Notes: generated by a model not told the origin, from the letters alone. A stretch of DNA of 64,000 nucleotides from Bacillota bacterium (GCA_036721855.1 DAIMKF010000004.1:17834-81833), one strand, 5' to 3'; counted from the stretch's first letter, positions 3,187 to 55,995 are shown. Numbers and translations are program-made.

Positions 3187-3199
3187 GGCAACCAGTGAA

Positions 3200-13382: not shown

Positions 13383-15809
13383 TCACTCGCTGCCAGCTCT
13401 TGCTGCTTGACTAACCTTTGATGGGATTAAACGCAAAAATCGGCTTGGAGTGCGAGATTTATACATATCTTCCCTATAATAACTTAAAAACAGCTGCTTT
13501 TTCGCCCTGGTAAGGCCTACATAAAAAACTCTACGCTCCTCAAGTTCCCTTTTCTCAATAATAGCATAATAATTAGGAAACTCTTTTTCTGTCAAACCAG
13601 GCATAAAGACAATCTGAAATTCCAAACCTTTAGCCTGATGAATTGTTATCACGGCCACTCTTTCTTCTATATCAATGCGATCAATGTTTTTTGCCAGAGA
13701 GGCAAACTTTAAAATGGCATCTAAAGCTGTAACCGGATGAAGTTTAGGATCGTCTTTATCAATAAAGGTTTGCATTAACTCATCGAGACTAGCCATTTGC
13801 TGGCAGTTTTTATAGAGTTCAAGTAAGCCACTTTCCTGCAAGATTATTTCTAGAAGGTCATAAGGCCTGGTTTCTTTTAACAGCTTTTTCCATCTGGCTA
13901 TTTGCAAGGCTAAAGGTCTAAAAAGCTTGGCATAGCATCTAACCATTTCTTGTCTTGGTGGTGCTGTTTTTTTGATTAGTGGCCTAAGATATTTTAATAA
14001 ATCAAGGGTGGCTTCGATATCGGCGCTAGCTTTATGTAACGGTTTATGAGGCAGATTTAGTAAAGCAGCTAAATCTTGCAGGCGATAACTTGAGGATTCC
14101 AAAAAACGTTTAGCAATGATAAGAGTATCATAATAAGCTTGATACTTGAAAGAATAACCCTGTCGATAAGACGCAGCCTCAATCATTTTTAAATCGAATT
14201 TCACATTATGACCTACTAAAACGCTGTTTGCACAAAATTGATAAAAATCGCTTAGGACCAGCCTAACATCTTCGCCATTTTGCTTAAGATAATTATCGGA
14301 AAAACCGTGAATATAAAAACTATCACCCACCAGCCTACTTGGCTTAATAAACCTATGAAACTTTTCGACCACACTTCCGTTTAGGATTTTATAAGCCGCC
14401 AGCTCTACTATTTCATCTACTTTAGGATCCAAGCCGGTGGTTTCGCAGTCAAAAACTATAATGGATCCGCTTTCTAAAGCCTTGAGCAAAATAGCATAAG
14501 GGTCATCTAATAATAACGTCGTCACTGAACCAAAATCAGCCAAACGCAGACCGGTTTTTTCTGCATCCTCGATCATATCGATCACAGCATTTGTAATATT
14601 ATACCCGGAACTTCTTAATAGGCGTCTAAAGCTAGGCTGATCCTCTGGGTTTAGAAGAAATCGCAGATAAGAAAGACAATCTTTAACTTCCTTGCGTTGA
14701 AAGAATTGATACTTCTCGGCATCTAGGTGTGGTACACCATTGCTTTCTAAAGCTTTAGAAACAACTGTGGCCCTTTTATTGGAACGAGTTAGTACCCCAA
14801 TTTCGCTATATTTAACCCCTTTTTGATGCAGATGCTTTATTTCTTGAGCGATCCAGGTAGCTTCATTAAACTCGTTAATTAAGCCTTTTATGATAATTGG
14901 CGGGCCAACCTCAACTTTTGATGTTGGTTTTGGTAGAGCATTACGACTATAGGTAGATACTACAGCACAAGCAGCTTCTATTAGTGTTTTGGTTGAACGG
15001 TGATTTTCGTCAAAGTTAATAGTGAGGTGATCCGGAAATTCTTGTGCGTACCGCTGAATCACTTTTTGGGGTGTGGAACCTCGCCATTCATAAATTGTTT
15101 GATCAAAATCCCCGCACAAAACTAAATTATTGCCATGTTTGGCCAATAAGGAGATCACATTGTACTCAGCCAGATGGGTGTCTTGCATTTCATCGACTTG
15201 AATCATTAAATACCGTTACTCAGCTTTAACCATAGGATTGGTTTTAAGAGCCTGGTTAACCACAGCTATTAAATCGGCAAAATCCAATGCACTGTTAGCT
15301 CGCAGTTGATTTTGATATAAATGAAACGCCAGTAAGAAATCTTCAGGTTTAATTGTTCCCAAAGGCAGCATCTCATCGATTTTGTAATTTTGAAACAAGG
15401 TGTTAATCTTATCTTCTGGTAATAATAAAAAGTCTGTCAGTTTAAGGCTAGAAATTAAATCTTTGGCATCATCATCATCAAAGATACCAAAATCTTGCGG
15501 TACCCCTACCCTTTTGGCACTCTGATACAAAACTTGAGCACAAAAGCCATGAAAGGTTTTAATAACCACTTGATGGGCCTTTGTGGGGCAATATTTTTTT
15601 ATGCGTTCTCGCATCTCTTCAGCGGCTCGATTAGTAAAAGTTACACAAAGAATCCTCTCCGGTGGTATACCGTTTTCAATAGCCTTGCTGACCCGAAGGG
15701 CTAAAGAAAACGTTTTACCGGTACCGACACAGGCTTGCAGCAAAATATTTTTGTCCCAATTGTCTATAAACCTCTGTTGTCTTTCTGTCGGCTCAACTAG
15801 GCTAGGCAT
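13383..15809 (-). pseudogene. UvrD/REP-type helicase with an inserted DEDDh 3'-5' exonuclease domain, interrupted by one in-frame TAA
   Basis: ACVGTGKT, VTFTNRAA, DFADL, then GAG TAA CGG TAT at 15216-15218, continuing in frame to IQVDEMQD, GDFDQTIYEWRG, FDCETTGLD, GHNVKFD, HKASAD, TIHQAKGLEF, EERRVFYVGLTRAK. ATG 15809 follows GGAGG. Confidence 0.88.
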
Positions 15810-16307
15810 TGAATAACCTCCATAATTAAAATTGGTAACTGTAAAAGGAATCTCTCCTTGGAAAAGACTTTCCTTTTGTTTCTCCACAACTAACCTCTGG
15901 GAAAATACTTTTTTTGGCAGCTGGGAAATAAATTACTGTTGGGTAGTAATCTGTTTATTAGTGCGAAGCTTAGATACCTCTCTGGTGGTCTATCCCTTAA
16001 GTTTTTAGTAAATTAGTTAGCTAGCTATAATTATTAGTGACTATTCCAACGAAAATACCCCTAACAATCATATACCATCTAAAAACCCTTGCTACTTTGG
16101 CATCTTTTTCATTTATACACCTCCCTCCTAATTTAACTGTTGATATATATAAAATTCCATTCTTATCTAGCTATACCTTTATAATAGCTATACTAAGTAT
16201 TTAGCCAAATAATCGGTCTCTTTGATCTTTATGCTTGATTTTAGCTAAACAAAAAGGAGCGAAAAAAGCTTGCGCGAAAGAAACTAATATAAGGGGTGAG
16301 CTGCTAT

Positions 16308-17498: not shown

Positions 17499-18785
17499 GT
17501 GTGGTGTAAAAAATACTTTTCCAAAGCGTTTTGTATTTTACTCGTCCTAATTCTAGCTACTGGGGTTTTTGCAGAAAAGATTACTGTTTGGGTTTGGTAT
17601 GACGGAACTTTAGGACAAATCCTTAGGCAAATGGTAAAAGAAGACTTTGAAGCCAAAACTGGGATTCAAGTGGAATTTCAGAGTGCACCTGTAGCCGATA
17701 TAACCACTAAGTTGCTACTTGCGGTTATAGGTAATGATGCTCCTGATGTTGTTGAACTTTTTTCCAACCAAATTGTTGAACTAGGTGTGCGTGGAGCTTT
17801 ACAAAAAATCAATAATATGCCTAATTTTAATAAGGTTCTAGAGCAAATGCACCCAGGACTTATGAGGCAACTAACCTATAAGAATTCTGTTTTTGCTCTA
17901 CCCGGTGAGGTTAATTGGACTTGGTCATACTATCGCACCGATATTCTTAAAGAAATTGGCGCGGAATTTCCCAAAACTTGGGATGAACTAAAAAATTTGT
18001 CCGTTAAATTAAAAGCTAGAAATATGGATATCTATTATGACTACCAGGGTGACGAAGCTGCACGTACAACAACAAGATTCCTGCCGTTTGTTTTTCAAAG
18101 AGGTACCGATATCTATACAACAGACGGTACCGCTTCCAATTTAGATCATCCTCTGATTATTGAAGCGTTTAAAGAATTCATCTCTTTATTTAAAGATTAT
18201 AAATTTCCTTTAGAAGATCCCGGGTACCAGACCTTTACCGATGGCTCTACCCCTATTCAAATCTATCAAAACTGGTATTACTCAAGGTTCTATGTCGCAC
18301 CTCAGATCGAAGGCAACTGGGATATCGCTCAGATGCCAGGTCACAAGAAAAAAGATGGTTCAATTGATCATACTAATACAGGCAAGATGCTTACCTGGGC
18401 CATTACCTCTAGTTCTAAAAAGAAAGAGGCGGCTTGGAAGTTTTTAGAGTGGGTGGTTTCCCCACAGTTTATAGGTAAATTTTCTAAGCTCGCCTTAGAA
18501 ACCCCATCGAAATGGCATCTCTTTTTTTCAACCAGAGATTCTATTGATAAATCTGTTTTTCCTGTAGAACAACTGGATGTGGCTCGAAAAGCTTTAGCTG
18601 CTTGTAAGATGCAAAGGGCAGTTGTAGGAGGCTATGTTGCCGATCGCTATATTGACTTTGCTTTTTCCAGTGTTCTTTTTCAAAATGCCCGTCCTGAAGA
18701 TGCACTTATAAAAGCTGCAAAGGATTCCACACAAGAGATTCAAAGAAAGTTAAAAGAATTCAGCAAATATATTGCCAAGTTATAA
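17499..18785 (+). CDS. Carbohydrate ABC transporter extracellular solute-binding protein (orphan)
   Basis: Signal peptide, KITVW...FEAKTGIQVE...APDV, SKKKEAAWKFLEW. RBS AGGAGGAG. Confidence 0.85.
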   Translation: MWCKKYFSKAFCILLVLILATGVFAEKITVWVWYDGTLGQILRQMVKEDFEAKTGIQVEFQSAPVADITTKLLLAVIGNDAPDVVELFSNQIVELGVRGALQKINNMPNFNKVLEQMHPGLMRQLTYKNSVFALPGEVNWTWSYYRTDILKEIGAEFPKTWDELKNLSVKLKARNMDIYYDYQGDEAARTTTRFLPFVFQRGTDIYTTDGTASNLDHPLIIEAFKEFISLFKDYKFPLEDPGYQTFTDGSTPIQIYQNWYYSRFYVAPQIEGNWDIAQMPGHKKKDGSIDHTNTGKMLTWAITSSSKKKEAAWKFLEWVVSPQFIGKFSKLALETPSKWHLFFSTRDSIDKSVFPVEQLDVARKALAACKMQRAVVGGYVADRYIDFAFSSVLFQNARPEDALIKAAKDSTQEIQRKLKEFSKYIAKL

Positions 18786-22947: not shown

Positions 22948-24921
22948 CTAATTTGGCTTCTTATAGTGATTGTTATGCGGTAAGTGTTTAGGCAAAGGTC
23001 TTTTTAACTCGTAAAATAATATCTCATAAAAATTATCATATTTACTGTCTATTGTCCCGCGATACTTGGCTTCATCCCGAAACATTATAGTTATTATTTT
23101 AGCTATAACAGCCTCTGGATTAAGAAATTGCAAACCTATTTCATTACTTTTTTTCCAGGTAACCTTGGTGGCTAAATTACCCAAATCCTCTGATTTAACT
23201 TTAATTACCTCACCTATTTGCGGAGAGACCGGTTTTGCAAAGCCAACTCTAAGGCCACCTTCTGAAATATCAAGAATTCTACCTTCCTGGCAACATCCAA
23301 TTTCTGTTTCACAACAAATTTCAGCACCTAGATCAGTAGCGAAGCGTTCCTTGTGTCTAATTCTTGGTCGTTCAATTGTAACCAGTACGGCTACAATTAA
23401 ACCTAGGCTGTTGTAGATAATCCAAAAGAGGTTTATGGTATATAAATCATATCGTATTTGATCAGTCCTAAACATATGGTTTAGAATAAAGCCTGCCGCT
23501 ATTAGATTCGTAAGAAGTACAATAATATGTGGGTGAGCTAATTTAACATTAAGTCCTCCTTTATCTTCTTCTCTGGTTTTTGGTGTTACAACAAACTTAG
23601 TATCCGGGAGGAACAATTCTTTAATAACTGCCCAGGAAGCAAAAGGTGCTAAAACCGTATCATAGATATGAGCCCAAGCCATAGTGCGATCACTTTTAAA
23701 AAGACTTCTAAACTGAATTACAGAAGCTAAATAACCCGGCAAGAAAAAAGCCACTAGTTTTAAAGGTTCTACGTTTAAAACACTTACTCCTAAAAAGGTA
23801 ACCAGCGAAGGGGTTAAAATAAAAACCATTTTTCTTAAACCATAAAACCAATAGACGATGCTGTCGGTATATAAAAGTTTTTGCATAAAACTTAAGCCTG
23901 GCAGCCTCCATATCCGCCAGTTTTTGGCAATTTGAATACCACCGCGGGCCCAACGATCTCTTTGTTTTACCAAATCACTAAACTTATCGGGAGATAAGCC
24001 CAAGGCTAAAGTGTCTTTAATAAAAACCGATTTGTAACCTTTGTTTTGTAAAAGCATCCCGGTTAACATATCTTCGGTAATACTTCCATAGGGAACTCCA
24101 CCAATCTCCAAAAGAGCAGACCTTCTAAATATGGCATTTGTACCCACATGCATAACGGCGTTATATCTGGCTTTACCGGCTTGTATTTTGCGCATAAAGA
24201 AATCCTGCTCATTGGGGATGAAGTTTTCCATATAAAGATTATACTGGAAAGGATCAGCGTTATAAAAAACTTGCGGGGTTTGGACAAAGCCAACTTTGGG
24301 ATCTGTAAATTGAGGTAAAATCCTTTTTAAGATTCTAGGATGTGGAACCATATCCGCATCTAAAAGCAGAATAAATTCCCCTTTTGTTTGAGTTAAGGCG
24401 TTATTTATATTCCCGGCTTTGGCATGTTTGTTATCAGTTCTGGTAATATAACCTATACCTAATTGGTCTGCCAGTTCTTTAACCTTTTGGCGTCTCCCGT
24501 CATCACAAAGAAAAATATTTACTTTTTCCTTCGGATAATCGATATTTAAACAACCTATAGCTGTCAGTTTGAGCAATTCCTCCGGTTCATTGTAAGTAGA
24601 GATCAAAATATCAACCGTTGGAAGCTCTAAAAACGAATCCAGGGATGCCGGTGGTTCTTTGTAATCTTCCCAAAACAATACCTTAAATATTAAAGACTGT
24701 ATATGCCCAATGGCTTCGGCCATAAATAACAAAAAGGCGAAGAAAAAATTTATCACTGAATCGGTAGGAAGCGTAAAAAATGCTCGCCAGAATAAATAGA
24801 CAATGCTATAGACGGAGGAAAGAACTATAAATGCTTTTCGTCCTTTTTTAGATCTTTTTGCTAACAGACTGCTTACAATTAGTATACAAATAGAGAAAAG
24901 ACCTAAATAAATATAGTTCAT
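22948..24921 (-). CDS. bcsA: Cellulose synthase catalytic subunit-like GT2 with C-terminal PilZ domain
   Basis: DDG, HAKAGNIN, DAD, QTPQ, TED and QRDRW motifs. PilZ motifs RHKER and DISEGG. N- and C-terminal TM helices. Confidence 0.85.
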   Translation of the reverse strand: MNYIYLGLFSICILIVSSLLAKRSKKGRKAFIVLSSVYSIVYLFWRAFFTLPTDSVINFFFAFLLFMAEAIGHIQSLIFKVLFWEDYKEPPASLDSFLELPTVDILISTYNEPEELLKLTAIGCLNIDYPKEKVNIFLCDDGRRQKVKELADQLGIGYITRTDNKHAKAGNINNALTQTKGEFILLLDADMVPHPRILKRILPQFTDPKVGFVQTPQVFYNADPFQYNLYMENFIPNEQDFFMRKIQAGKARYNAVMHVGTNAIFRRSALLEIGGVPYGSITEDMLTGMLLQNKGYKSVFIKDTLALGLSPDKFSDLVKQRDRWARGGIQIAKNWRIWRLPGLSFMQKLLYTDSIVYWFYGLRKMVFILTPSLVTFLGVSVLNVEPLKLVAFFLPGYLASVIQFRSLFKSDRTMAWAHIYDTVLAPFASWAVIKELFLPDTKFVVTPKTREEDKGGLNVKLAHPHIIVLLTNLIAAGFILNHMFRTDQIRYDLYTINLFWIIYNSLGLIVAVLVTIERPRIRHKERFATDLGAEICCETEIGCCQEGRILDISEGGLRVGFAKPVSPQIGEVIKVKSEDLGNLATKVTWKKSNEIGLQFLNPEAVIAKIITIMFRDEAKYRGTIDSKYDNFYEILFYELKRPLPKHLPHNNHYKKPN

Positions 24922-27636: not shown

Positions 27637-27968
27637 GTTATCTTACCCTTTACTGTAAATCTAGAACATCGTCTCGTTTAAACTCCTTTTATGCTTTAAA
27701 CTATGTTTGCAGCTTTTTATATGCTTTAAGCAGTGTTACGACTTCTCACAGCTTTATTTTTTCGTTAAACTTTTATTAGGAGAATCTATTCATACTCATT
27801 TTCTCTTCTATTTTATCTTTTTTTCTAAGTATATAATTCTAGCAGAAGACAGTAATTAATAGGAACTTAGTGAAACAATAACTTATTGATTGACCGGCAA
27901 TTTATCTACAAACACGAAGAATTAAATAAGCTTTGAGTTTTTTGTTTGTAGAATTAAGGAGTGATAAT

Positions 27969-29270
27969 ATGCGTTTTTTTAAAAGTACCTTGGTTTTAAT
28001 ACTGCTACTTTTTATCTTTACTGTAGCTATTTATGCTGCTGATAAAATATCAGTTTGGTTAACTGGACATCCCAATGAAGAAATGGCCATTATCAAAGCT
28101 TTAACCGAGAGTGAGTTTACTTCCCAAACCGGAATTGCCGTTGAATACAATAACCTTTCCTGGGGCGATTTTGAAAATCGCTTTTTAATGGCAGCCGCCT
28201 CGGGCGAAGCTCCTGATGTAGGTGCCTCGGGAGCCTTGTTCTTACCGGATTTAGGCGTAAGAGGAGCCATGATCGATCTTACCAACATGCCTGATTTTAA
28301 AGGAGTCTATGCCAGAACCTATCCCGGTTTTTACCTTTCTTTACAATACAAAGGCTTAACTTTCGGTATTCCCTATACTGCTTCAGTATCGACTTTGTAT
28401 CAAAGAGATGATATCTTAAGAAACTTAGGTATTCAATCTCTTAGCAGTTGGGATGAACTTAAGCAGGTATTGCCAAAACTCCAGGCCAATAACACCAACT
28501 TTTCTTTGCAATGGTTTTTATCTGAAACTCTCTATGCCGATATTTATATGTTCATGTGGCAAAGAGGTGCCGATGACTACAATGCCGACTTGACCAAATC
28601 GGGTTATGACACACCCGAATTCATTGCGGCGTTTAAAGAATATACCGACCTTTATACCAAATATAAAATCCCCAAAGAGATCCCTGTTTTTCAGGCTTTT
28701 GTTAACGGAGATTTAGCCATGGTAATTCAGTATCCGGAATTTTACCAAAACCTAACCTATAGCGCTCCCCAAATTGCCGGCAAATGGAGTATGACTCGAG
28801 TCCTTGGTACAAAAGTAGGTGGACAAGTAAATAACATCAGCGGTGCCGGGGGTTGTGCACTTGGTATCTTTACTTCCTCTAAGAAGAAAAATCAAAGCTG
28901 GGAATTTATCAAATGGCTAACAGCTGAAGAAACTCAACTCGCTATTGCCAATAAAATTATGACTCAAATTAAGGGAGCCTTATTTCTACCTTCAAATAAT
29001 GGTTCTGTTAATAAAATCCCTCTTCCTAAAGATGCTCTCGAGACATTTTCCTTGGCTTTGAGTACCGGTACTGGTTTTAGATATGGACTGGTTGCTCCCA
29101 GACACCGACGCCGCTATCTACAGATGGCTGCCCAGAAAGTTGTTTTGCATGGAGTCGACCCGGAAGAAGCCATCCGTGAGGCAGCTGCTGAGCATAACGT
29201 GGAGATTAAAAGAAAACAGGTTGAGTATGATCGCTATATTAAAAAGCTGTTAGAACAACAGAAAAAATAA
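27969..29270 (+). CDS. Carbohydrate ABC transporter extracellular solute-binding protein (orphan)
   Basis: Signal peptide, KISVW...FTSQTGIAVE...GEAPDV, SKKKNQSWEFIKW. Paralogous to 17499-18785. Confidence 0.85.
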   Translation: MRFFKSTLVLILLLFIFTVAIYAADKISVWLTGHPNEEMAIIKALTESEFTSQTGIAVEYNNLSWGDFENRFLMAAASGEAPDVGASGALFLPDLGVRGAMIDLTNMPDFKGVYARTYPGFYLSLQYKGLTFGIPYTASVSTLYQRDDILRNLGIQSLSSWDELKQVLPKLQANNTNFSLQWFLSETLYADIYMFMWQRGADDYNADLTKSGYDTPEFIAAFKEYTDLYTKYKIPKEIPVFQAFVNGDLAMVIQYPEFYQNLTYSAPQIAGKWSMTRVLGTKVGGQVNNISGAGGCALGIFTSSKKKNQSWEFIKWLTAEETQLAIANKIMTQIKGALFLPSNNGSVNKIPLPKDALETFSLALSTGTGFRYGLVAPRHRRRYLQMAAQKVVLHGVDPEEAIREAAAEHNVEIKRKQVEYDRYIKKLLEQQKK

Positions 29271-29377: not shown

Positions 29378-30775
29378 CTATATTATCTTAAAAGACTGGC
29401 TTTTTTTAACATCAATTGCAGGTAAGTTGCCCTTTGAGTTGTAAGATGTGGCTATTAAGTTCTTTATAAGGATATCTTTCCCTAATCTTAGCTTGACAGC
29501 ACTAAATGATTGGCTAAAAGCCGGATTGTACTCCCAGTTAATAACTACTTCATTAATTTCTATATTTTTTACATAGCGCAGATAAAGGTTACAGGGTGCA
29601 AAATGGTGCTGGCCATAGTTGGGGATGGGATCTGGAATATCCAGCTCATAGAGCTTTTTTTTAGGCTTAATTAGAAAGTTTAGCTGTTTTAGGGTCACAT
29701 CACTAATCCAGTCATCTTTAGTGCCTATAAGTGTAGCCACTCCGTTGGCTCTTACTCTACAGTCTCTGATTGTAACCTTACTGATTGAGCCGCGATCTGT
29801 CATCAGAAAAAACGGAGTTCCTTCCTGCTCTAAGGAAATTTCTAAATTTTCACAGACTATATCTTCGATCTGTCCGTATTGGGCAGTCACATTGACTACA
29901 CCGGCCGCGTTTAGCACTTTACAATGGTAAATTTTCACATCACTAACTTTATAAAAGCTGCCATCGTCTTTGATAAAACTGTCTAAGCCTGTATATATTC
30001 TTAGCACATTAACCGCCGAATTAAAGGTGCAATTACGAATAACAGTGCCTTTAGAAAACCCGGAATCATTCCCGTCTACTGCCAAGGAATCATCACCGGT
30101 TTGAAAATAACAGTCTTCGACTAAGACATTTAAACAGGAACTGAAGTGGTAACCATCCGTATTGGGACCATAGAAATTATTTTCAACCCGACAAGCTTGA
30201 AAATGTACATTTCGGCAAGAAAGTAGCCAGGCTGAATAAGCCGGTGAATCCCGAATAATTAATGACTTTACGTTGACATTTTGGCAGTTTTTTAGTAGCA
30301 GGGTCATGGGACGAAAAGGCTTGGCATAGTACCTAGGTGGAGTTGAACACCACAATTCGCCAATCTCTTGCATCGGTGTCCAAAAAGCCTCACCACATCC
30401 TATAATAACACCACCTTCTATTCCTATATCACAGCTATCTTGGGCATAGATCATGGCATAACCTAAATCCGGTGTGTTTATGGAAAGATCATTTTGCTTT
30501 AGATGGAGGGGATAGAATTGAGCCGCCTCAACAGGAGATATTAAAAAGCAATCTGAAGCAAGACGCAATGTTACCCGGCTTTTAATTTCAATTGAACTTG
30601 TCAGATATTTACCGGAGGGAATAAAAACATTACCTCCACCAAGGTTATGACATCTATCGATTGCCATTTGAATATAAGTTCTGGTTTTAGTAAGATCATT
30701 TCTTTCGTTAAGCGGAATTGAAACAGTTAATTCATTTTTCATAGTTTTCATCCCTTTTTTACCTTTAAAAAGCAT
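29378..30775 (-). CDS. GH28-like (polygalacturonase-family) glycoside hydrolase, cytoplasmic
   Basis: IQMAIDRC...GGGNVFIPSGKYL, IIRDSPAY, PNTDG, TGDDSLAV. No signal peptide. Confidence 0.8.
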   Translation of the reverse strand: MLFKGKKGMKTMKNELTVSIPLNERNDLTKTRTYIQMAIDRCHNLGGGNVFIPSGKYLTSSIEIKSRVTLRLASDCFLISPVEAAQFYPLHLKQNDLSINTPDLGYAMIYAQDSCDIGIEGGVIIGCGEAFWTPMQEIGELWCSTPPRYYAKPFRPMTLLLKNCQNVNVKSLIIRDSPAYSAWLLSCRNVHFQACRVENNFYGPNTDGYHFSSCLNVLVEDCYFQTGDDSLAVDGNDSGFSKGTVIRNCTFNSAVNVLRIYTGLDSFIKDDGSFYKVSDVKIYHCKVLNAAGVVNVTAQYGQIEDIVCENLEISLEQEGTPFFLMTDRGSISKVTIRDCRVRANGVATLIGTKDDWISDVTLKQLNFLIKPKKKLYELDIPDPIPNYGQHHFAPCNLYLRYVKNIEINEVVINWEYNPAFSQSFSAVKLRLGKDILIKNLIATSYNSKGNLPAIDVKKSQSFKII

Positions 30776-33748: not shown

Positions 33749-34399
33749 ATGGATCTAGATTCAAGTGTCTATTGCCTAAAATGCAGTAGTGAATCTGCCT
33801 CTGGTCTAATTAACCCAAAAACTTATCAGTGGTGCCCGGTATTTGGTCAGCCTAAACCTGCAATATATAAACCAGCTCTCCAATACATTGTTTCAATCCC
33901 TATCAACTTAGCCAAATCCCTGGAAGGCAAGTATTATGTCGGTTATGCTGATAATTTAGTTTTTGGTCAGGGAAAAAGTGCTTGGGCAAGATTATATAAT
34001 CCGCTTAATTCCGGTATTAATTTACATGTAACAGTCTGGACTGTCAGCGATGTTTCAGAAACTACTTTTCGGGCCCAAATCTGGTTTAATACCAATCCTC
34101 CGGGAACATCGCTGGAATCCGATTTAGTTACCCCCTCTAACCTCGCTTTTTATCCCCCACCTCATCCCAAGGTAAAATTAGAATATGCTATCAATGTCTC
34201 AGGAGAGCCTCTGGGTGGGATAAAGGCTTTTGTGCGCCGAGGACAACCTGAAACCACCCTGGTAGATGACGAACAAGGCAAATTTATCTTTCCTCCGGGA
34301 GGTTCATTTCTCATTTTCCTATCCAATCCGGAAACACCGGATTTAATAAGTAGCGGTAGAATTGCCTATGGCTGGTGGGAAGAGCCTGTTTGTAATTAA
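33749..34399 (+). CDS. DUF6143-like hypothetical protein
   Basis: VSIPINLAKSLEGKYYVG...AWARLYNPLNSGINLHV...FIFPPGGSFL recognised as DUF6143-like. RBS AAGGAG. Confidence 0.65.
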   Translation: MDLDSSVYCLKCSSESASGLINPKTYQWCPVFGQPKPAIYKPALQYIVSIPINLAKSLEGKYYVGYADNLVFGQGKSAWARLYNPLNSGINLHVTVWTVSDVSETTFRAQIWFNTNPPGTSLESDLVTPSNLAFYPPPHPKVKLEYAINVSGEPLGGIKAFVRRGQPETTLVDDEQGKFIFPPGGSFLIFLSNPETPDLISSGRIAYGWWEEPVCN

Positions 34400-34436: not shown

Positions 34437-34471
34437 AAAAATGCAGGCTACATTTTAGTAGCCTGCATTTT
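34437..34471. terminator. Bidirectional terminator ending the hyd operon
   Basis: AAAATGCAGGCTAC-ATTTTA-GTAGCCTGCATTTT. Confidence 0.8.
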
Positions 34472-34498: not shown

Positions 34499-36223
34499 TT
34501 ACTTTCTTGGTGTGTAGTGGGTATGCAAAAGCTGGTGCGAACGTTCTGATAGAGGTTTTTGGAGAAATTCCTCATAAAGAGCGATTACAGCGGGATTTTT
34601 GTGGGATAGACGTAGCTCCATATCTCGATCAGCAGTATAAAGGGCACTGCCTCTTTCAGCGCGAGTAGTCATCAGAGAACCAATCGGCTGTCCTCCACCA
34701 CCCACACATCCACCCGGGCAACACATAACCTCCACAAATTGCCAAGGTGCCTTGCCTGATTTAATCTGCTCTAGTACCTTTTTTGCATTGGTAAGGCCAT
34801 GGGCCACTGCCACCATAACTTCGTTACCACTGAGATTTACTGTAGCCTCTTTAACTCCTTCCAAACCTCTAACCTCATGAAACTCAAGTTCGTCTAAAGC
34901 TAACTCCTTTCCGGTTACCACTTCATAAACGGTGCGCAAAGCTGCTTCCATCACACCTCCTGTAGCGCCAAAGATTGCTCCGGCACCTGTGGATGTGCCT
35001 AGCGGAGAATCAAAATCTTCTTCGGGTAAGCTCTCAAAATTTATCCCCGTCTCTTTAAGCATACGGCCTAATTCGCGTGTTGTAAGAACAACATCCACAT
35101 CTCTAAAGCCACTCGATTGCATCTCAGGTCTTTGGGCTTCAAATTTTTTGGCTGTACAAGGCATAATGGATACGACAAAAATATTGGCCGGATCTAGATT
35201 AGCTTTTTTTGCGTAGTAGGTTTTAGCCAAAGCTCCAAACATCTGTTGGGGTGACTTACAAGAAGAAATATGTTCCAGAAGCTCCGGATAAAAATGCTCA
35301 ATATATTTTATCCATCCCGGGCTGCATGAGGTAATTAGAGGAAGTGTTTTACCACCCATTAATCTTTGCAACAGCTCGTGGCCTTCCTCCATGATAGTAA
35401 GATCAGCCGTAAAATCAGTGTCAAAGACCCGATCAAAACCCAGCCTTCTTAGGGCTGCAACCATCTTACCCGTAACAATTAAACCTGGTTTAAGACCTAG
35501 TTCCTCACCAAGAGAGACTCTGATGGCAGGAGCAGTCTGAACCACAACATGTTTTGCCGGATCAGAGAGAGCTTTCCAGACTAAAAAGGTATCATCTCGC
35601 TCAGTAATAGCCCCGGTAGGACAAGCCAAAATACATTGACCACATAAGGCACAGACCACATCCGAAAGGCCCAATTCAAAAGCAGGCATTACAACCGTAT
35701 CAAACGAGCGGTTTATCATAGAAAGTGCCTCTACTCCTTGAACCTTCTCACAGACCTCTATACAGCGTCTGCAGTTAATGCACTTATTGGGATCACGTAC
35801 GATAGCAGGTGAAGACTCGTCTAAAGGTAAATTGCGGATAATTCGCTCAAACCGGATCTTTCTTATACCCAGATCAGAAGCTAGTTGCTGCAACTCACAT
35901 TGGAGGTTGCGGGCACAAGCCAGACAATCATCAGGGTGATGAGCTAAAAGCAGCTCAACAGCCATTTTACGTGCTTTTCTTACAAGGGGTGAGTTGGTAG
36001 ATACCACCATATTGGGTGCAACCGGGTACGAACAGGCCGGTTGCAGAGTCCGCATACCTACAATTTCCACCACGCAGACTCTACATACCGCAGGAGAACC
36101 TAAATCCTCATGCCAACATAAGGTAGGTATATTTATCCCGATACTGCGGGCTGCTTCAAGAATAGTGGTTCCAGGTGCAACCTTTACTAGTTGATCATCT
36201 ATAGTTAAGGTAATATCCGACAT
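34499..36223 (-). CDS. hydA: [FeFe]-hydrogenase catalytic subunit (group A3-type, M3 architecture)
   Basis: H-cluster motifs ITSCSPGW, MPCTAKKFE and EVMCCPGGCVGGGGQP. N-terminal 2Fe-2S, a His-ligated 4Fe-4S, and 2x4Fe-4S motifs. Confidence 0.95.
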   Translation of the reverse strand: MSDITLTIDDQLVKVAPGTTILEAARSIGINIPTLCWHEDLGSPAVCRVCVVEIVGMRTLQPACSYPVAPNMVVSTNSPLVRKARKMAVELLLAHHPDDCLACARNLQCELQQLASDLGIRKIRFERIIRNLPLDESSPAIVRDPNKCINCRRCIEVCEKVQGVEALSMINRSFDTVVMPAFELGLSDVVCALCGQCILACPTGAITERDDTFLVWKALSDPAKHVVVQTAPAIRVSLGEELGLKPGLIVTGKMVAALRRLGFDRVFDTDFTADLTIMEEGHELLQRLMGGKTLPLITSCSPGWIKYIEHFYPELLEHISSCKSPQQMFGALAKTYYAKKANLDPANIFVVSIMPCTAKKFEAQRPEMQSSGFRDVDVVLTTRELGRMLKETGINFESLPEEDFDSPLGTSTGAGAIFGATGGVMEAALRTVYEVVTGKELALDELEFHEVRGLEGVKEATVNLSGNEVMVAVAHGLTNAKKVLEQIKSGKAPWQFVEVMCCPGGCVGGGGQPIGSLMTTRAERGSALYTADRDMELRLSHKNPAVIALYEEFLQKPLSERSHQLLHTHYTPRK

Positions 36224-36237
36224 TTTTCAACCTCCTT

Positions 36238-37899
36238 TCAACTAACAATGTCGCTTTTTGTGCTAGCTACCTGGGTATTAACACCGTTTTGGCATTTCCC
36301 AACTAGACAAGCTTCATGCAAATGCATCTGAATTTCGTCTCTAAAATGCTCCATTATGGTAAAAAGAGGAACTGCCACCGATTGACCAAGAGCACATAAT
36401 GATGAACTTTGCATTACTTGGGCCAATTCCAGCGCTAAATCCAAATCTGCTTTAGTGGCCTTAAACTGACGTAGTTTATTAAAAATCTGTAGTACCCGGG
36501 TAGTACCTTCGCGACAGGGAGTGCACTGTCCGCAGGACTCATGGGCAAAAAAGTTCAGCATTGAACAGGCAATATCTACTATACAATGACTATCATCGAT
36601 AACCAGAAGCGCTCCTGATCCTAAAGCAGAACCAACCGATTGCAGGCTTTCGTAATCCATTGGTAGATCAAGATGAGCATCAGTCAGACAACCACCGGCT
36701 GTTCCTCCTGTTTGAGCCAGTTTAAATAACCTACCGTTAGGAATTCCCCCACCCACCCCATAGATTACTTTCCGTAAAGTAATGCCCATAGGAACTTCAA
36801 TCAAACCCTTGTTGTTAATATTGCCTGTTAGGGTAAAGACTTTGGTCCCCGGTGAACTAGTCGTTCCTATACTTCTATACCAAGCTGCACCATGCCTGAT
36901 AATAGCTGGGATATTGGCTATAGTCTCCACATTTACCACCACTGTAGGTTTCCCCCATAAGCCGGAAGTGCTAGGATAGGGTGGTTTTTGGCGTGCCTCT
37001 CCCCTTTTACCTTCCATCGAGGCAATAAGTGCGGTTTCTTCTCCACAAACATAGGAGCCGGCACCTTTTTTAACTTCAATATCAAATTCAAAATCCGTTC
37101 CGAACAGTTTTTTGCCCAGAATCCCTGAAGAACGTGCTTGGTTTATGGCCTTTTCCATTCGTTCAATAGAAAGATAGTATTCACCACGAATGTAAACATA
37201 ACCACAGGTAGCACCAACTGCGTAGCCTAAAATAATCATGCCCTCAATGATCTTATGGGGATCACCTTCTAGAATCAGTCTATCCTTAAAAGTACCCGGT
37301 TCACCCTCATCAGCATTACAGATGATATACTTTTGATCTGATTGCGTTTTTTGTGTCATGGCCAGTTTTTTACCGGTAGGGAAAGCTGCACCTCCACGTC
37401 CCCTAAGACCTGAGTCTTTAACAATTTCAATAACTTCTTCCGGAGAGTAACTAGTAAAAGCTGTTTCGGCAGCTTCGTAGCCATTGTGCTTAATATATTC
37501 TTCAATACTGTCTGGATTAATTAAGCCAGCATTTTCAAGCACAACACGTTTTTGAATTTGAAAATAATCCGGGCGTTTACTGTAATCAGCCGAGACCGAG
37601 GGCATCTCTCCTGTATATTGGAATCTTTTTACGGGGAAGCCTTTAATTAGATGTTCGCTGACAATTTCACGAGCTTTTTCTATGGTAACTTGGCTATATA
37701 CTATTCCTTCCGGATAAACCACAACAATCGGTCCCTGATCACATGGACCCAAACACCCTGTTTCGACAACACGTATCTCACGATCAAGCCCAGCTTTTTT
37801 AACCAGCTGTTCGATCTCTTTAAGTATGGCGTAGCACCCATGGGCCACACAAGGGGAGCCACCACATACCAGAACGTGTGAACGATAATAAAACCCCAT
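36238..37899 (-). CDS. hydB: NADH/FMN-binding hydrogenase beta subunit (NuoF-like), lacking the C-terminal 2x[4Fe-4S] domain
   Basis: GLRGRGGAAFPTG, NADEGEPGTFKDR, GAGSYVCGEE, ESCGQCTPCREG. The protein ends shortly after ACLVGKC. Confidence 0.92.
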   Translation of the reverse strand: MGFYYRSHVLVCGGSPCVAHGCYAILKEIEQLVKKAGLDREIRVVETGCLGPCDQGPIVVVYPEGIVYSQVTIEKAREIVSEHLIKGFPVKRFQYTGEMPSVSADYSKRPDYFQIQKRVVLENAGLINPDSIEEYIKHNGYEAAETAFTSYSPEEVIEIVKDSGLRGRGGAAFPTGKKLAMTQKTQSDQKYIICNADEGEPGTFKDRLILEGDPHKIIEGMIILGYAVGATCGYVYIRGEYYLSIERMEKAINQARSSGILGKKLFGTDFEFDIEVKKGAGSYVCGEETALIASMEGKRGEARQKPPYPSTSGLWGKPTVVVNVETIANIPAIIRHGAAWYRSIGTTSSPGTKVFTLTGNINNKGLIEVPMGITLRKVIYGVGGGIPNGRLFKLAQTGGTAGGCLTDAHLDLPMDYESLQSVGSALGSGALLVIDDSHCIVDIACSMLNFFAHESCGQCTPCREGTTRVLQIFNKLRQFKATKADLDLALELAQVMQSSSLCALGQSVAVPLFTIMEHFRDEIQMHLHEACLVGKCQNGVNTQVASTKSDIVS

Positions 37900-37919
37900 A
37901 GTAATCCCCTCCTTGAGGC

Positions 37920-38411
37920 CTATTTATAACGTTCTAAGATCTTGTTGAGATCTTCTGGAACTAAATTTCCATAGACCTCATCATCGATCATCATGGCTGG
38001 TGCAACCCCGCACACACCAAGACACGAACTTACTTCAACCGTAAAACGTCCGTCTTTTGTCGTGCCACCTATCTCGACGCCAAGGATATTACAAAGCGAG
38101 TCGATTATTTCCGTTTTGCCCATAACATGGCAAGGAGTCGACTCGCAGATTCTGATGATATGACGTCCCCTAGGTGTTGTTGAGAACATTGAATAGAATT
38201 TAGCTACTCCGTATACACGACTCTCTGGTATTTCTAGAACACGTGCTACTACACTTAATGCTTCACGAGGAAGGTAGTTTTTTAAGTCCTGCACTTCGTG
38301 AAGGGCTAGAACAATATCTTCTGGTTTACCACAATATTTAGTTGCAATTTCCTCTACCTGAGTTAGAAAATCAGCATCAGGTTGCAAGGTTATTTCAGAT
38401 TTTTCTGCCAT
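37920..38411 (-). CDS. hydC: Hydrogenase gamma subunit (NuoE-like, 2Fe-2S)
   Basis: VYGVAKFYSMFS, ICESTPCHVMG, SSCLGVCGVAP. Confidence 0.92.
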   Translation of the reverse strand: MAEKSEITLQPDADFLTQVEEIATKYCGKPEDIVLALHEVQDLKNYLPREALSVVARVLEIPESRVYGVAKFYSMFSTTPRGRHIIRICESTPCHVMGKTEIIDSLCNILGVEIGGTTKDGRFTVEVSSCLGVCGVAPAMMIDDEVYGNLVPEDLNKILERYK

Positions 38412-38462
38412 ATAGTGGACCTCCTTTCCTACCTAGAGTATATTTTGCTAGGTATTACTATT

Positions 38463-38480
38463 TTGTGATATTTTTAACAA
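38463..38480. promoter_or_regulatory. Putative Rex operator
   Basis: TTGTGATATTTTTAACAA, an 18-bp match to TTGT(G/T)AA-N4-TT(A/C)ACAA with one mismatch, 8 nt downstream of the -10 box. Confidence 0.7.
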
Positions 38481-38488
38481 TCCTTTCC

Positions 38489-38517
38489 AAAATAACTGGC
38501 CGTTAGGTAAATGTCAA
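38489..38517 (-). promoter_or_regulatory. Sigma-A promoter for hydCBA
   Basis: TTGACA-17 nt-TATTTT on the minus strand. Confidence 0.65.
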
Positions 38518-38524
38518 TCTGCTA

Positions 38525-38881
38525 CTAAGAGATGACAAGATTACCCACGACCTTGCCATTTACTACGTGGCTGGCAATAATCTGACGTGCTCTTTCCGGT
38601 GTTACATGGCCATAAATTACTTTTGGTTCACCTTGTCTTACTACTTCAATAATCGGTTCTAACTCACACATGCCAATACAACCTGTTTGTGTAACTACTA
38701 CATTACTGAGATTGCGGGCTTTGATCTCATCGTCAATTGCCTTAAGTGTTTCCCGGGCTCCTGCTCCTATACTGCATGTTCCCATACGGATAACAATGCC
38801 AACCTTGTCTTTTTCTTCTTTAGAATCTGTACTAGGCGATGAACACTCCTTAAACTTTTTAAGATTATCGAACAACTTCAT
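38525..38881 (-). CDS. Thioredoxin-like [2Fe-2S] ferredoxin (HndB/HydD-like subunit)
   Basis: IRMGTCSIGAGAR, QTGCIGMCELEP, IYGHVTPERARQIIASHV. ATG 38881 follows AAGGGGG. Confidence 0.85.
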   Translation of the reverse strand: MKLFDNLKKFKECSSPSTDSKEEKDKVGIVIRMGTCSIGAGARETLKAIDDEIKARNLSNVVVTQTGCIGMCELEPIIEVVRQGEPKVIYGHVTPERARQIIASHVVNGKVVGNLVIS

Positions 38882-52963: not shown

Positions 52964-55336
52964 TTAGTTTTTCTTAAAAAACTCCCTGGCGATCTTGACT
53001 GCTTCTCTGGCATCCCTTCCGTAATAATCAGCCCCGATTAGGTCCGCGTATTCTTTATTAAGAACGGCTCCGCCTACCATAACTTTGCAATTTAAGCCCT
53101 CTTTCTTGATAGCGGCAATGGTTTTTTCCATATTCTTTACTGTTGTAGTCATTAAGGCACTTAAACCTAAAAGCGGGATCCTTTCTTCTTTAACTGTTTT
53201 TAAGATAACTTGTTGAGAAACATCCCTACCTAGATCGATAACTTTAAAACCATAGTTTTCCAGTAAGAGTTTGACCATATTCTTCCCGATATCGTGAATA
53301 TCACCTTCAACAGTTGCCAAGACAATCTTTCCTTTGTTTAGATCAAGGCTTTTTTCTTTGTCTTTTAAACTATGGGTTTTAATAACCTCAAAAGCTACTT
53401 TTGTGGTTTCAGCTGCCTGGATCAGGTGAGGTAGGTAAAGCTCCCCTTTTTCATATTTTAGACCAACTTCATCTAAAGCCGGTATTATATATTGGTCAAT
53501 TACCTCCAGGGGGGTTAACTTTTTAAGCAGTTTTTGGGTTACCGCAGGTGCGGCAGCTTTTAATCCACACCCAATAACTTTTTTAAGATCTTCTTCTATT
53601 ATTTGGGCTTTCGGGTCTTGTTTTTTTACATTGCTATATCTAGTCAGAAAGTTTGTGGCTGTAACATCAAAGGCCAATAAAAGGTTACATGCATCAAAGG
53701 TTTTTATCATCTCTGCATCTAGTGGATCAATTATGGCTGCGTTAAGACCCGCACCTAAGGCCAAAGCTAAAAAGGTCTTGTTAAGCAAAGTTCTATTTGG
53801 TAGCCCAAAAGAAACGTTACTGATTCCAAGGACAGTTTTTACACCTAGCTCTTTTTTGATTAATCTTATGGCTTTAAGTGTTTCTAGAATCTGGTTTTGT
53901 TCTGTTGAGGCTGTAAGCACCAAACAGTCTATAATTAAATCTTCTTTGTCTATACCATATTGAGCGGCTTTTTTTACTATCCTCTTAGCAATCTCAAGTC
54001 TTTTTTCAGCTGTAGGAGGGATACCTTTTTCATCTAGGGTTAAACATACCGCGCACGCACCATATTTTTTAACCAGGGGAAACAGCTCTGCCATTACTTC
54101 TTCTTTCCCGTTGACAGAGTTAATAAGTGGTTTGCCGTTATAAACTCTTACCGCAGCTTCAAGGACATCTCTATTCATACTATCAATTGACAGAGGAAGA
54201 TCGATTATGCCTTGCAGCTGTTTAATAACCTCTAACATGGTCGTAACTTCATCGATTTCAGGTAGGCCAACATTTACATCAAGCAGATCGACCCCAGCTT
54301 CCTTTTGCCTGATAGCTTCTTGTAAAAGCGCAGTATAATCTTTCTGTTTTAGCGCTTCTTGAAGGTATCTTTTGCCTGTAGGATTTAGCCTCTCGCCGAT
54401 AACTGCCGGTTTTTCACCGATAATAACTGTTTTTGTGGCTGAACTAACCGCCGTTAGTTTTTGTATTTGGCGTTTTAACGGCTTAACTGTTTTTAATTCG
54501 TTTTTTAGAGTTTGAATATACTTAGGATTAGTTCCGCAACATCCTCCGATAAACGACACACCTTTTTGGACCATTAGCTTGGCGAAACTCGCAAATTCCT
54601 CTGGTCCTATCTCAAAGACAGTCTCTCCCTGGCTCTCTTTAGGCAGTCCCGCATTAGGTCTTGCGATTACAGGCACTTTTGCATATTTAACTATCTCTTC
54701 CAGCAGAGGTAGCGTTTCTTTGGGGCCTAAAGAGCAATTGATACCTAGGGCTTTAACCCCTAACCCTGAAATGGTATTAACCATAGTAAGAGGATCAGTC
54801 CCCATTAGAGTTTTTCCGTCGGCTTGAAAAGTCATGGTGGCAAATACCGGGAGATTACTGTTTTCGGTAGCTGCCAGAACGGCCACCTTAAGTTCATAAA
54901 GATCGGTCATGGTCTCAATTAAAATTAAATCTGCCCCGGCTTCAGTTCCCAAGATTACCTGCTCTTTAAATAAAAGATAGGCCTCATTAAAAGATAGCGT
55001 CCCATAGGGCTGTATGAACTGGCCGAGAGGACCGATATCTAAAGCCACCAGTATATCTTTGGCGGCTTGACGGGCTATTTTTACACCTAAAGGTACAATT
55101 TCTTTGACACTCAAACCATATTGGCTGAGTTTAAGAGAATTCGCACCAAAAGTGTTGGTGGTAATGATATCTGCCCCAGCTTGAATATACTCGCCATGGA
55201 TTTGGGCGATTAGTTCTTGGCTTGAAATATTGTAACTTTCCGGCGGTTGCCCGGTTTTAAGGCCATAACTTTGCAGTAAAGTGCCCATTGCTCCATCAAA
55301 AAGCAGAATGTTCTCATAATCGATTTTCCTTTTCAC
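52964..55336 (-). CDS. metH: Cobalamin-dependent methionine synthase (Hcy-binding, pterin-binding, cap and B12 domains; no activation domain)
   Basis: FDGAMGT, GINCS, IGGCCGT, IGERLNPTG, EGDIHDIGKN. The GTG start overlaps the upstream stop (GTGA). Confidence 0.92.
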   Translation of the reverse strand: MKRKIDYENILLFDGAMGTLLQSYGLKTGQPPESYNISSQELIAQIHGEYIQAGADIITTNTFGANSLKLSQYGLSVKEIVPLGVKIARQAAKDILVALDIGPLGQFIQPYGTLSFNEAYLLFKEQVILGTEAGADLILIETMTDLYELKVAVLAATENSNLPVFATMTFQADGKTLMGTDPLTMVNTISGLGVKALGINCSLGPKETLPLLEEIVKYAKVPVIARPNAGLPKESQGETVFEIGPEEFASFAKLMVQKGVSFIGGCCGTNPKYIQTLKNELKTVKPLKRQIQKLTAVSSATKTVIIGEKPAVIGERLNPTGKRYLQEALKQKDYTALLQEAIRQKEAGVDLLDVNVGLPEIDEVTTMLEVIKQLQGIIDLPLSIDSMNRDVLEAAVRVYNGKPLINSVNGKEEVMAELFPLVKKYGACAVCLTLDEKGIPPTAEKRLEIAKRIVKKAAQYGIDKEDLIIDCLVLTASTEQNQILETLKAIRLIKKELGVKTVLGISNVSFGLPNRTLLNKTFLALALGAGLNAAIIDPLDAEMIKTFDACNLLLAFDVTATNFLTRYSNVKKQDPKAQIIEEDLKKVIGCGLKAAAPAVTQKLLKKLTPLEVIDQYIIPALDEVGLKYEKGELYLPHLIQAAETTKVAFEVIKTHSLKDKEKSLDLNKGKIVLATVEGDIHDIGKNMVKLLLENYGFKVIDLGRDVSQQVILKTVKEERIPLLGLSALMTTTVKNMEKTIAAIKKEGLNCKVMVGGAVLNKEYADLIGADYYGRDAREAVKIAREFFKKN

Positions 55337-55995
55337 TCTTGTGGCTCCCTTCTCAACCGACAATTAACCATCTTACAGTCTGAGCATCTTTTATTGGTTG
55401 GAGCATTAACTGACGGAGTTTTAGTTAGACCTATTATGGCTGTGATTGATTTTCTGGGGATCATAAGAGAGCTTTTTGTAACCGTAAGGCCTATTTTACT
55501 GTAAGCGTTTAAAAGATTAAGCAGCTGCTGTTGCGCTTCCAAAGGGAAATCACCATAACCGGGGCTATACCTTTTAGTAAGAAAAAACCCATTTTCAGAG
55601 GCGAAAACGCCAATAAGATCGCAAACCTCATCACCATATGCTTCAATGGCTGTTGAGGCCGTGGCATCCATTACCATTGCTTTTAAGAGATCTGACTGTG
55701 CATAATAGTCAATTTTTTTATCAACTTCACTGCCGAGGGTAACCGCCATTACCGCACAATAAGAAGAGTCTCGGAGGTGATTTTGAAGATCGCGACTTTT
55801 AAAAGACAAGAAGCTTTCCTGTAGTTTGATCTGATCAGCTTCGCTTTCTATCCTGTAAATTTCATAAACATTTTTTGGACGGACAAGGTTAAATATTTCA
55901 CTGCTGCATGCTTCGATTAAATTTCTAATATCTGCTTCTATTTTTAATCCCCGATAACCTAAATAACGCAAAACTTCGTTCTGATTAATCTTCAT
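55333..55995 (-). CDS. Stand-alone B12-dependent methionine synthase activation domain
   Basis: AVTLGSEVD, MDATASTAIE, RYSPGYGDFPL, MIPRKSITAIIG. Confidence 0.88.
   Translation of the reverse strand: MKINQNEVLRYLGYRGLKIEADIRNLIEACSSEIFNLVRPKNVYEIYRIESEADQIKLQESFLSFKSRDLQNHLRDSSYCAVMAVTLGSEVDKKIDYYAQSDLLKAMVMDATASTAIEAYGDEVCDLIGVFASENGFFLTKRYSPGYGDFPLEAQQQLLNLLNAYSKIGLTVTKSSLMIPRKSITAIIGLTKTPSVNAPTNKRCSDCKMVNCRLRREPQE

Follow-up and report, generated by a model that had tools for sequence, protein, structure and literature searches.

A conserved four-gene [FeFe]-hydrogenase operon from uncultured Bacillota with a short HydB subunit of predicted nonbifurcating type

The cause of electron bifurcation in multimeric [FeFe]-hydrogenases of the HydABC type is debated, and it has been sought in sequence motifs, in the N-terminal [2Fe-2S] cluster of the HydB subunit (B5), in the C-terminal HydB domain that holds a pair of [4Fe-4S] clusters (B3/B4, here the dicluster domain) or in a minimal "flavobicluster" made up of B1, flavin mononucleotide (FMN) and C1. 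Here we describe a hydrogenase operon located at positions 34499 to 38881 of a 64,000-nucleotide (nt) stretch from a Bacillota bacterium (GCA_036721855.1, DAIMKF010000004.1:17834-81833; hereafter the window, whose positions are used as coordinates throughout). The family to which its HydB belongs keeps the ligands for B1, C1 and B5 as well as a Zn site, lacks B3/B4 and has a pocket of the type found in NuoF of complex I, and it may thus provide a natural test that tells apart what the pocket residues and what the set of clusters contribute.

In the described bifurcating enzymes, ferredoxin docking has been placed on the B3/B4 domain (PMC10021017). When reduced, the N-terminal [2Fe-2S] cluster (B2 in Katsyv's naming, B5 in that of the Adams group) raises the affinity for NAD(P)+ about 15-fold, and its removal cuts bifurcation about tenfold. 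A Cys3His site is described in the structural papers as binding Zn and acting as a hinge (three Cys and one His in PMC9499530), and Li and colleagues identified B1-FMN-C1 as the minimal bifurcation site. A preprint of June 2026 reports that the Synechocystis HoxEFUYH hydrogenase, to which no dicluster domain is tethered, both bifurcates and confurcates; AFM, the Phe and GGPSG are kept in its HoxF. For the distinction between nonbifurcating and bifurcating beta subunits, Losey 2020 (PMC7311640) gave four criteria, namely, T/S versus A/E at position 232 of TmHydB, K/S/A versus M at position 234, Tyr versus Phe at the FMN site and the absence versus the presence of GGPSG. The tables of the same work list 24 predicted nonbifurcating "trimeric" beta subunits of 402 to 434 amino acids (aa) that consist of the NuoF core only, and a single predicted nonbifurcating "tetrameric" one, the 520-aa Cloacimonas YP_001741249 (Table S2 therein). 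Because BfuB had to carry a 4Fe-4S ferredoxin-type InterPro domain to enter the Bfu survey of Schut et al. 2022, the family described here could not be sampled there, while a study of Hydrogenedentota reported a subtype without B3, B4 and B5 but none keeping B5. In the literature, we found no paper describing B5 ligands and a Zn site kept without B3/B4 in a HydB with a NuoF-type pocket. The family appears, from its sequences, to be a well-conserved variant of the multimeric [FeFe]-hydrogenases linked to reduced nicotinamide adenine dinucleotide (NADH), coming from uncultured bacteria.

The operon is intact and consists of four codirectional genes on the minus strand (Table 1), encoding from 5' to 3' an HndB-like protein, HydC/NuoE, HydB/NuoF and HydA, with spacers of 14 to 113 nt (open reading frame [ORF] listing and translation checks). 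HydA contains the Pfam domains Fer2_4, NADH-G_4Fe-4S_3, dicluster, Fe_hyd_lg_C and Fe_hyd_SSU, predicted to hold an N-terminal [2Fe-2S] cluster, a His-ligated [4Fe-4S] cluster and two more [4Fe-4S] clusters, and its H-cluster motifs (TSCSP, MPCTAK and EVMCCPGGC) are intact. It scored 904 bits against NF040763 ("[FeFe] hydrogenase group A6"; cutoff, 765), and its closest PDB matches were T. kivui and A. woodii HydA1. HydC is a full-length protein of the NuoE type (172 bits to Pfam 2Fe-2S_thioredx, above the cutoff of NCBIfam NuoE) with an intact [2Fe-2S] ligand pattern for C1, C89-x4-C94...C130-x3-C134, and matched most closely A. mobile HydC in the PDB (7t2r_C). An H-cluster HydA accompanied in the same operon by NuoF-like FMN/NADH and NuoE-like subunits is what characterizes the multimeric NuoE/NuoF-linked group A [FeFe]-hydrogenases, and judging from these domains the locus would be a multimeric cytoplasmic hydrogenase similar to group A3 (HydABC/Hnd type; A3 in HydDB, "A6" in NCBIfam). 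The full NCBIfam name, "NADH-dependent [FeFe] hydrogenase, group A6," was discarded as evidence of NADH-only function, as it does not separate the bifurcating from the nonbifurcating mode.

HydB is made up of the Pfam domains 2Fe-2S_thioredx (aa 7 to 82), Complex1_51K, SLBB and NADH_4Fe-4S, and contains neither a Fer4 domain (Pfam) nor a CxxCxxCxxxC motif, i.e., no C-terminal 2x[4Fe-4S] domain. Its AlphaFold model had a predicted local distance difference test (pLDDT) score of 82, with HydB, NfnB and StnB chains as top Foldseek matches, and in PDB alignments the best partners of the full-length protein were the HydB subunits of A. mobile and A. woodii. An earlier reading of the window by a model that had only the sequence (the sequence-only reading) had singled out three motifs of the NADH site, the FMN site and the SLBB region, all of which translation places at the expected residues. 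In the alignment with HydB, the solved bifurcating enzymes show GDPGAFM, GAGAFVCGEE and GGPSGG followed by the dicluster domain, bearing out the contrast that this reading had drawn. The window HydB has the nonbifurcating state at all four positions of Losey 2020 (T203, K205, Y283 and GGTAG), so that the earlier motif reading agrees with the published criteria; we refer to the first three together as TKY and to the bifurcating-type set as AMF. Since E. coli NuoF has the same motif states in its equivalents (NADEMEPGTYK and GAGRYICGEE), the pocket of HydB (E/T/K, Y and GGTAG) appears to represent the ancestral complex-I/NuoF state. The thioredoxin-like N-terminal domain (C12, C17, C49 and C53) and the Cys/His/Cys/Cys site (Cys439, His526, Cys531 and Cys536) are likewise retained, in agreement with the earlier description, and the H..C..C residues align with those of A. 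woodii, T. maritima-type and Melioribacter HydB.

HydB stops exactly 17 residues after ACLVGKC (about 17 had been estimated). The spacer between its stop codon and the HydA start has only 14 nt (AAGGAGGTTGAAAA) and includes a canonical AAGGAGG ribosome-binding site, leaving no space for a dicluster domain. The identical 553-aa protein is encoded on 12 Logan contigs; on the four of these that were examined, which come from four separate sequencing runs, the gene ends were the same. Because of this agreement, of the ribosome-binding site and HydA start abutting the stop, of the 120 clusters of homologs without Fer4 that have the same architecture (see below) and of the prediction by AlphaFold that aa 539 to 553 are disordered (pLDDT of <50), we conclude that the short C terminus is genuine. 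That the short HydB stems from misassembly (which, by hiding a dicluster domain, would have overturned the sequence-only reading), from a frameshift or from the decay of a bifurcating enzyme into a pseudogene was rejected on the same grounds, together with the conservation of the ligands in the homologs and the synteny of all eight complete loci; we found nothing in favor of this explanation and consider its likelihood negligible.

The best 120 homolog clusters (clustered at 90% identity) were 57 to 95% identical to HydB and 451 to 557 aa long; they had the Pfam domains of HydB and likewise lacked Fer4. Clusters at 50% identity had yielded no distinct representative of the family, apparently absorbed under a bifurcating-type protein of ~597 aa, and the 90% clusters were used instead. 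In the family alignment of 121 sequences, T203, K205 and Y283 were invariant (121/121), the four N-terminal cysteines were kept in 118 to 121 sequences and the residues of the Cys3His site in at least 115, the SLBB motif was GGT[S/A]G, and from 0 to 22 residues followed the last Cys; no sequence (0/121) had a CxxCxxCxxxC motif. Among the GTDB species genomes, we found ten loci with this type of HydB, nine in metagenome-assembled genomes (MAGs) of uncultured Bacillota/Clostridia and one in an Actinomycetota MAG. The nearest relatives in the genome collection were also uncultured Bacillota MAGs, with no more than 76% identity of HydB over the full length. The order HndB-like, HydC, HydB, HydA was found in 8 of 8 complete related loci, and bifurcating-type loci with an HndB-like gene (AMF, two Fer4 motifs and a HydB of ~596 aa) had the order HydC, HndB-like, HydB, HydA. 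The architecture, which had been taken as unusual, is therefore a conserved trait of a family and not a peculiarity of this genome. In annotations and in metabolic models, the homologs are labeled "NuoF" or "NADP-reducing hydrogenase HndC."

Other arrangements were seen elsewhere. Bacteroidales loci had the order HndB-like, HydB, HydA, HydC, and a Caldisericales MAG (CAZVYK010000002.1, positions 6612 to 14394 of locus L024) encoded HydC, an HndB-like protein, a 551-aa HydB, a second HydC, a 545-aa HydB and a 908-aa HydA. There, the 551-aa HydB has AMF motifs and no Fer4 (Hox-like) and the 545-aa one has TKY and no Fer4, so that two different flavoprotein modules stand in tandem ahead of a single hydrogenase.

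Comparison with the known systems shows a mixture of features. With the NADH-only or predicted nonbifurcating enzymes the locus shares T, K, Y, the absence of GGPSG and of the C-terminal 2x[4Fe-4S] domain, and a complex of the NuoE/NuoF/HydA type. The predicted nonbifurcating NuoF-only beta subunits that we sampled (~402 to 434 aa; 407 aa in Syntrophothermus), however, have neither the N-terminal domain nor the Cys3His site, so that the window HydB has in addition its own thioredoxin-like domain with four Cys and the ligands of the Zn site, and the operon a fourth gene. In Syntrophus aciditrophicus, HydB is a HydC-HydB fusion, whereas HydC of the window is a separate gene. The Candidatus Cloacimonas acidaminovorans protein YP_001741249, the sole beta subunit of a four-gene cluster published as predicted nonbifurcating, resembles the window HydB in T/K/Y, the N-terminal extension and the lack of a dicluster domain (its motif is GGAAG), but it has lost the N-terminal Cys ligands (SSPF) and ends before the His/Cys/Cys residues; because the window HydB keeps both, it is a distinct and more complete variant. 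Conversely, the N-terminal four-Cys domain, the Zn site, HydC and a fourth gene similar to HndB/HydD are shared with the bifurcating HydABC/HndABCD enzymes (A. woodii, T. kivui, T. maritima and S. fructosivorans), from which the locus differs by the lack of B3/B4 and of AFM/F/GGPSG and by its gene order. Regarding the Bfu/HydABC group, the dicluster domain, AFM, the single Phe and GGPSG are thus missing, while all the predicted ligands for B1 [4Fe-4S], C1 [2Fe-2S], B5 and Cys3His (B2/Zn) are present and conserved. The tetrameric Hnd-like scaffold that had been suggested stands as far as the HndB/HydD homolog as fourth gene is concerned, but not for the dicluster HndC or the order A(NuoE)-B-C-D, which are absent. 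Finally, the HoxEFU diaphorase of the cyanobacterial bidirectional [NiFe]-hydrogenase also has an N-terminal [2Fe-2S] domain, no dicluster domain and a separate NuoE-like subunit, although HoxF carries bifurcation-type motifs and works with a [NiFe] module, in contrast to the NuoF-type motifs and [FeFe] HydA of the window.

Identity over the NuoF core (aa 125 to 530) was 54% to the bifurcating Melioribacter and A. woodii HydB, 52 to 53% to the Cloacimonas and Syntrophothermus Slip_0124 proteins and 43 to 46% to the other predicted nonbifurcating proteins sampled; S. wolfei and S. aciditrophicus HydB were represented by stand-ins from the Losey alignment (Syntrophothermus, Dehalococcoides, Halothermothrix, Marinitoga, Spirochaeta and Cloacimonas). 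In a neighbor-joining tree of this core (166 sequences, rooted on E. coli NuoF, 100 bootstraps), the family was monophyletic in 93/100 replicates. Its sister group was free of AMF sequences in 78/100 and included Slip_0124, a predicted nonbifurcating protein (Losey 2020) that usually groups with HydB and is ~53% identical to it in the core, in 52/100. The family would then fall, with moderate support, in a nonbifurcating grade close to the base from which the bifurcating enzymes radiate. Motif co-occurrence was scored on 150 representatives of 50%-identity clusters, where TKY was never accompanied by a C-terminal dicluster (0/35) or by GGPSG (0/35), and 27 of the 52 AMF representatives had the dicluster. 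Most TKY representatives with four N-terminal Cys had an extension of 157 to 284 aa, consistent with HydC-HydB fusions like that of S. aciditrophicus, and a short extension like that of the window HydB was found in only one other deep cluster (P0265, 552 aa).

The fourth subunit is thioredoxin-like in fold, and its three conserved Cys (GTC...GCxGxC) form a motif common to the proteins of 8 family loci and 40 bifurcating-type neighbors; in the latter, the aligned small genes adjoin a bifurcating HydB. Its closest PDB matches were the N-terminal domains of two NfnB proteins, one from T. sibiricus (9n5u_B; E, 5.5e-20) and one from C. saccharolyticus (9bov_B; E, 1.2e-15), and in both structures the homologous three-Cys site holds Zn and not [2Fe-2S]. 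S. ovata StnB, with the same N-terminal pattern, was modeled with [2Fe-2S] at lower local resolution, and the workers on Hnd consider HndB probably cofactor-less. The protein is an ordinary HndB/HydD/BfuD homolog rather than an unusual addition, and is probably a Zn-binding or cofactor-less, redox-inert structural subunit. The adjacent HndB-like gene of the sequence-only reading was thus correctly recognized, but its designation as a ferredoxin is probably wrong, given the three Cys and the Zn of the solved relatives.

The best-supported prediction, which we consider fairly probable, is that the complex is a direct and reversible NAD(H):H2 oxidoreductase that works independently of ferredoxin and without electron bifurcation; an NADH-only enzyme had also been proposed in the sequence-only reading. 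The hydride of NADH would be transferred to FMN in HydB, from which single electrons would move by way of the NuoF-type [4Fe-4S] cluster (B1) to the Fe-S chain of HydA and the H-cluster. The [2Fe-2S] clusters of HydC (C1) and of the HydB N terminus (B5) would be side clusters that may tune nucleotide affinity or buffer and protect the flavin rather than feed ferredoxin, with the Cys3His site probably binding a structural Zn and the HndB-like protein probably acting as a redox-inert structural fourth subunit. The genes, domains, ligands, motifs, conservation and synteny described above are seen in the sequences; cofactor occupancy, stoichiometry, the choice between NAD and NADP, ferredoxin independence and physiological direction are inferences. 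With an E0' of -320 mV for the NADH couple versus -414 mV for H2, net production of H2 from NADH requires that the H2 pressure be low (tens of Pa), and at higher pressure H2 is taken up to form NADH.

The loss of the C-terminal domain alone is not decisive for this prediction, given the HoxEFUYH preprint. The pocket motifs are the better discriminator because HoxEFUYH, the only bifurcating enzyme reported without B3/B4, keeps AFM/F/GGPSG, and it is because these motifs are nonbifurcating in HydB that we prefer the NADH-only enzyme. Also counted in its favor were the lack of any TKY sequence with dicluster or GGPSG, the placement in the tree, the Fer4-less HydB, the intact H-cluster motifs of HydA and the intact cluster ligands of HydC, and it is further supported by the low bifurcation activity of T. 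kivui HydABC with the HydB C terminus deleted (P565-G630, from the Zn linker) (PMC10021017). Several points weigh against it. No assay has been reported for a member of this family or for any other enzyme that combines B5 and the Zn site with the absence of B3/B4. Elsewhere, the ligands of B5 and of the Zn "hinge" are typical of bifurcating HydB, and here they are conserved almost absolutely, which argues for a function beyond that of an NADH-only wire; with no domain left to hinge, this is the one feature that a simple wire leaves unexplained. According to the Hox preprint, serving ferredoxin does not require that a dicluster domain be tethered to the enzyme, and the criteria of Losey 2020 rest on two purified nonbifurcating hydrogenases plus complex I, formate dehydrogenase and Nyctotherus ovalis as comparators. 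In addition, the tree was built by neighbor joining and not by maximum likelihood, and in 22/100 bootstraps the family was sister to a large AMF clade.

The main rival is a confurcating or bifurcating hydrogenase of the Hox type, in which a soluble ferredoxin or flavodoxin docks at the surface-exposed C1 of HydC and B5 of HydB and the dicluster is dispensable. The subunit architecture is that of HoxEF, the minimal site B1-FMN-C1 appears to be fully present and B5 and the Zn site are strongly conserved, but HoxF has AFM, the single Phe and GGPSG where HydB has TFK, Tyr and GGTAG as in NuoF, the phylogeny favors the nonbifurcating grade and the Hox result is a preprint; on balance, we consider it unlikely. 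Also unlikely is the idea that the family is a natural "half-way" bifurcating module. It would then be either a surviving prebifurcation intermediate, in which the gain of the N-terminal [2Fe-2S] domain and of the Zn hinge preceded that of the ferredoxin domain and of the AFM pocket, or a minimal confurcating enzyme that serves ferredoxin directly at B5/C1, as described for Hox, despite its NuoF-like pocket. If true, either version would show which parts of HydBC are necessary and which are sufficient for bifurcation. A different set of partners, with an NADP(H)-specific enzyme such as T. kivui HydABC or a redox-active HndB-like subunit feeding another acceptor, seems improbable. Hnd was long annotated as NADP reducing, a label that homologs of HydB still carry, and StnB offers a precedent for [2Fe-2S] at the three-Cys pattern; however, nucleotide preference is not readable from the HydB motifs, the two best-resolved three-Cys homologs bind Zn and HndB is regarded as cofactor-less.

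If the enzyme is NADH-only, its mostly uncultured Bacillota carriers would be sensitive to H2 pressure, or else would use it in H2 uptake. Annotation tools that treat all HydABC-like clusters as bifurcating would mispredict the energetics of these organisms. The dependence on syntrophy that the sequence-only reading had derived from the enzyme type was an overreach: Losey 2020 (PMC7311640) found predicted nonbifurcating enzymes in many nonsyntrophic fermenters, often beside bifurcating ones, and warned against this inference, so the finding is not evidence for syntrophy.

Table 1 Features of the hydrogenase operon and of its surroundings (positions in the 64,000-nt window)
Feature	Position	Strand	Basis or remark
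HndB/HydD/BfuD-like small subunit, 118 aa	38525-38881	-	Weak Pfam 2Fe-2S_thioredx match; PDB matches
HydC, NuoE-like gamma subunit, 163 aa	37920-38411	-	Pfam 2Fe-2S_thioredx, NCBIfam NuoE, PDB
HydB, NuoF-like beta subunit, 553 aa	36238-37899	-	Pfam, PDB alignments, AlphaFold, Foldseek
HydB N-terminal thioredoxin-like domain, aa 1-95, with C12/C17/C49/C53, predicted [2Fe-2S] "B5" site	37615-37899	-	C-x4-C...C-x3-C as in A. woodii HydB
HydB NADH-site motif NADEGEPGTFK, aa 195-205 (T203, K205)	37285-37317	-	NuoF-like, nonbifurcating state
HydB FMN-site motif GAGSYVCGEE, aa 279-288 (Y283; Phe in bifurcating enzymes)	37036-37065	-	Translation
HydB SLBB-region motif QTGGTAGG, aa 396-403 (GGTAG versus GGPSG)	36691-36714	-	Translation
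HydB HLHEACLVGKC, aa 526-536 (His526-x4-Cys531-x4-Cys536)	36292-36324	-	With Cys439 (nt 36583-36585), putative Zn2+ "hinge" (B2) site
HydB C-terminal tail QNGVNTQVASTKSDIVS, 17 residues, plus stop codon	36238-36291	-	Bifurcating HydB runs on into the dicluster domain here
HydA, [FeFe]-hydrogenase catalytic subunit of the M3 type, 574 aa	34499-36223	-	Pfam, NCBIfam NF040763, PDB
Strong hairpin, 14-bp stem, flanked by A and T runs	34438-34471		Separates the end of HydA from the convergent DUF6143 gene
Carbohydrate-related genes	8011-9975, 17499-18785, 22948-24921, 27933-29270, 29378-30775		GH127, GH28, two sugar-type solute-binding proteins, PilZ glycosyltransferase

The hairpin that follows HydA is likely a bidirectional terminator at the end of the operon. 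Beyond it, a gene for a DUF6143 protein (33749 to 34399, plus strand) is convergent with HydA, and the same neighbor was found on independent contigs with the identical operon. At the other end, the start of the HndB-like gene at 38881 was preferred to an ATG at 38926 because homologs start with MKSL.., gene callers chose it and a G-rich ribosome-binding site lies upstream. The spacer between this gene and HydC (38412 to 38524) is unusually long (113 nt) and contains a promoter-like element, TTGACA-17-TATTTT, at 38517 to 38489, so the expression of the HndB-like protein may be in part uncoupled from that of HydCBA. A 2.4-kb "long match" in the related loci L004, L005 and L008, which could have been taken for an insertion in HydB, turned out to be the HndB-like gene matching the paralogous N-terminal domain of HydB.

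The surrounding genes include a GH127 beta-L-arabinofuranosidase-like protein, a GH28 pectinase-like protein and a PilZ-containing glycosyltransferase similar to cellulose synthase, as well as an AraC regulator. These genes make a carbohydrate-using Bacillota-like organism plausible and are consistent with an anaerobe using plant polysaccharides, in line with the apparent sugar fermenter of the sequence-only reading as regards its sugar genes, but redox metabolism adds nothing to that picture, as within the 64 kb there was nothing bearing on ferredoxin metabolism or on other hydrogenases. In two relatives (UBA5389 and GCA_012839115.1), a formate-tetrahydrofolate ligase is found upstream of the operon, and in UBA5389 RnfC/RnfD-like genes follow directly downstream; the positions concerned are 3057 to 4775 and 9991 to 12326 of locus L003 and 420 to 2192 of locus L087. 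This context, which the window does not share, hints at an H2-linked C1 metabolism in the MAGs of the two relatives.

Elsewhere in the window, the C-terminal half of a UvrD-like helicase ORF (13383 to 15206, minus strand) is interrupted by an RNase_T exonuclease domain, and of the N-terminal helicase domain the ORF keeps no more than the end. The adjacent upstream ORF of 223 aa (15216 to 15887, minus strand) may be the missing N-terminal part, suggesting a split or frameshifted gene. An S-adenosylmethionine (SAM) riboswitch (RF00162, 90 bits) was detected at 59110 to 59219 (minus strand), upstream of a homocysteine-biosynthesis (HcyBio) gene (57851 to 59086), and a MetH-like B12-dependent methionine synthase is encoded at 52964 to 55363.

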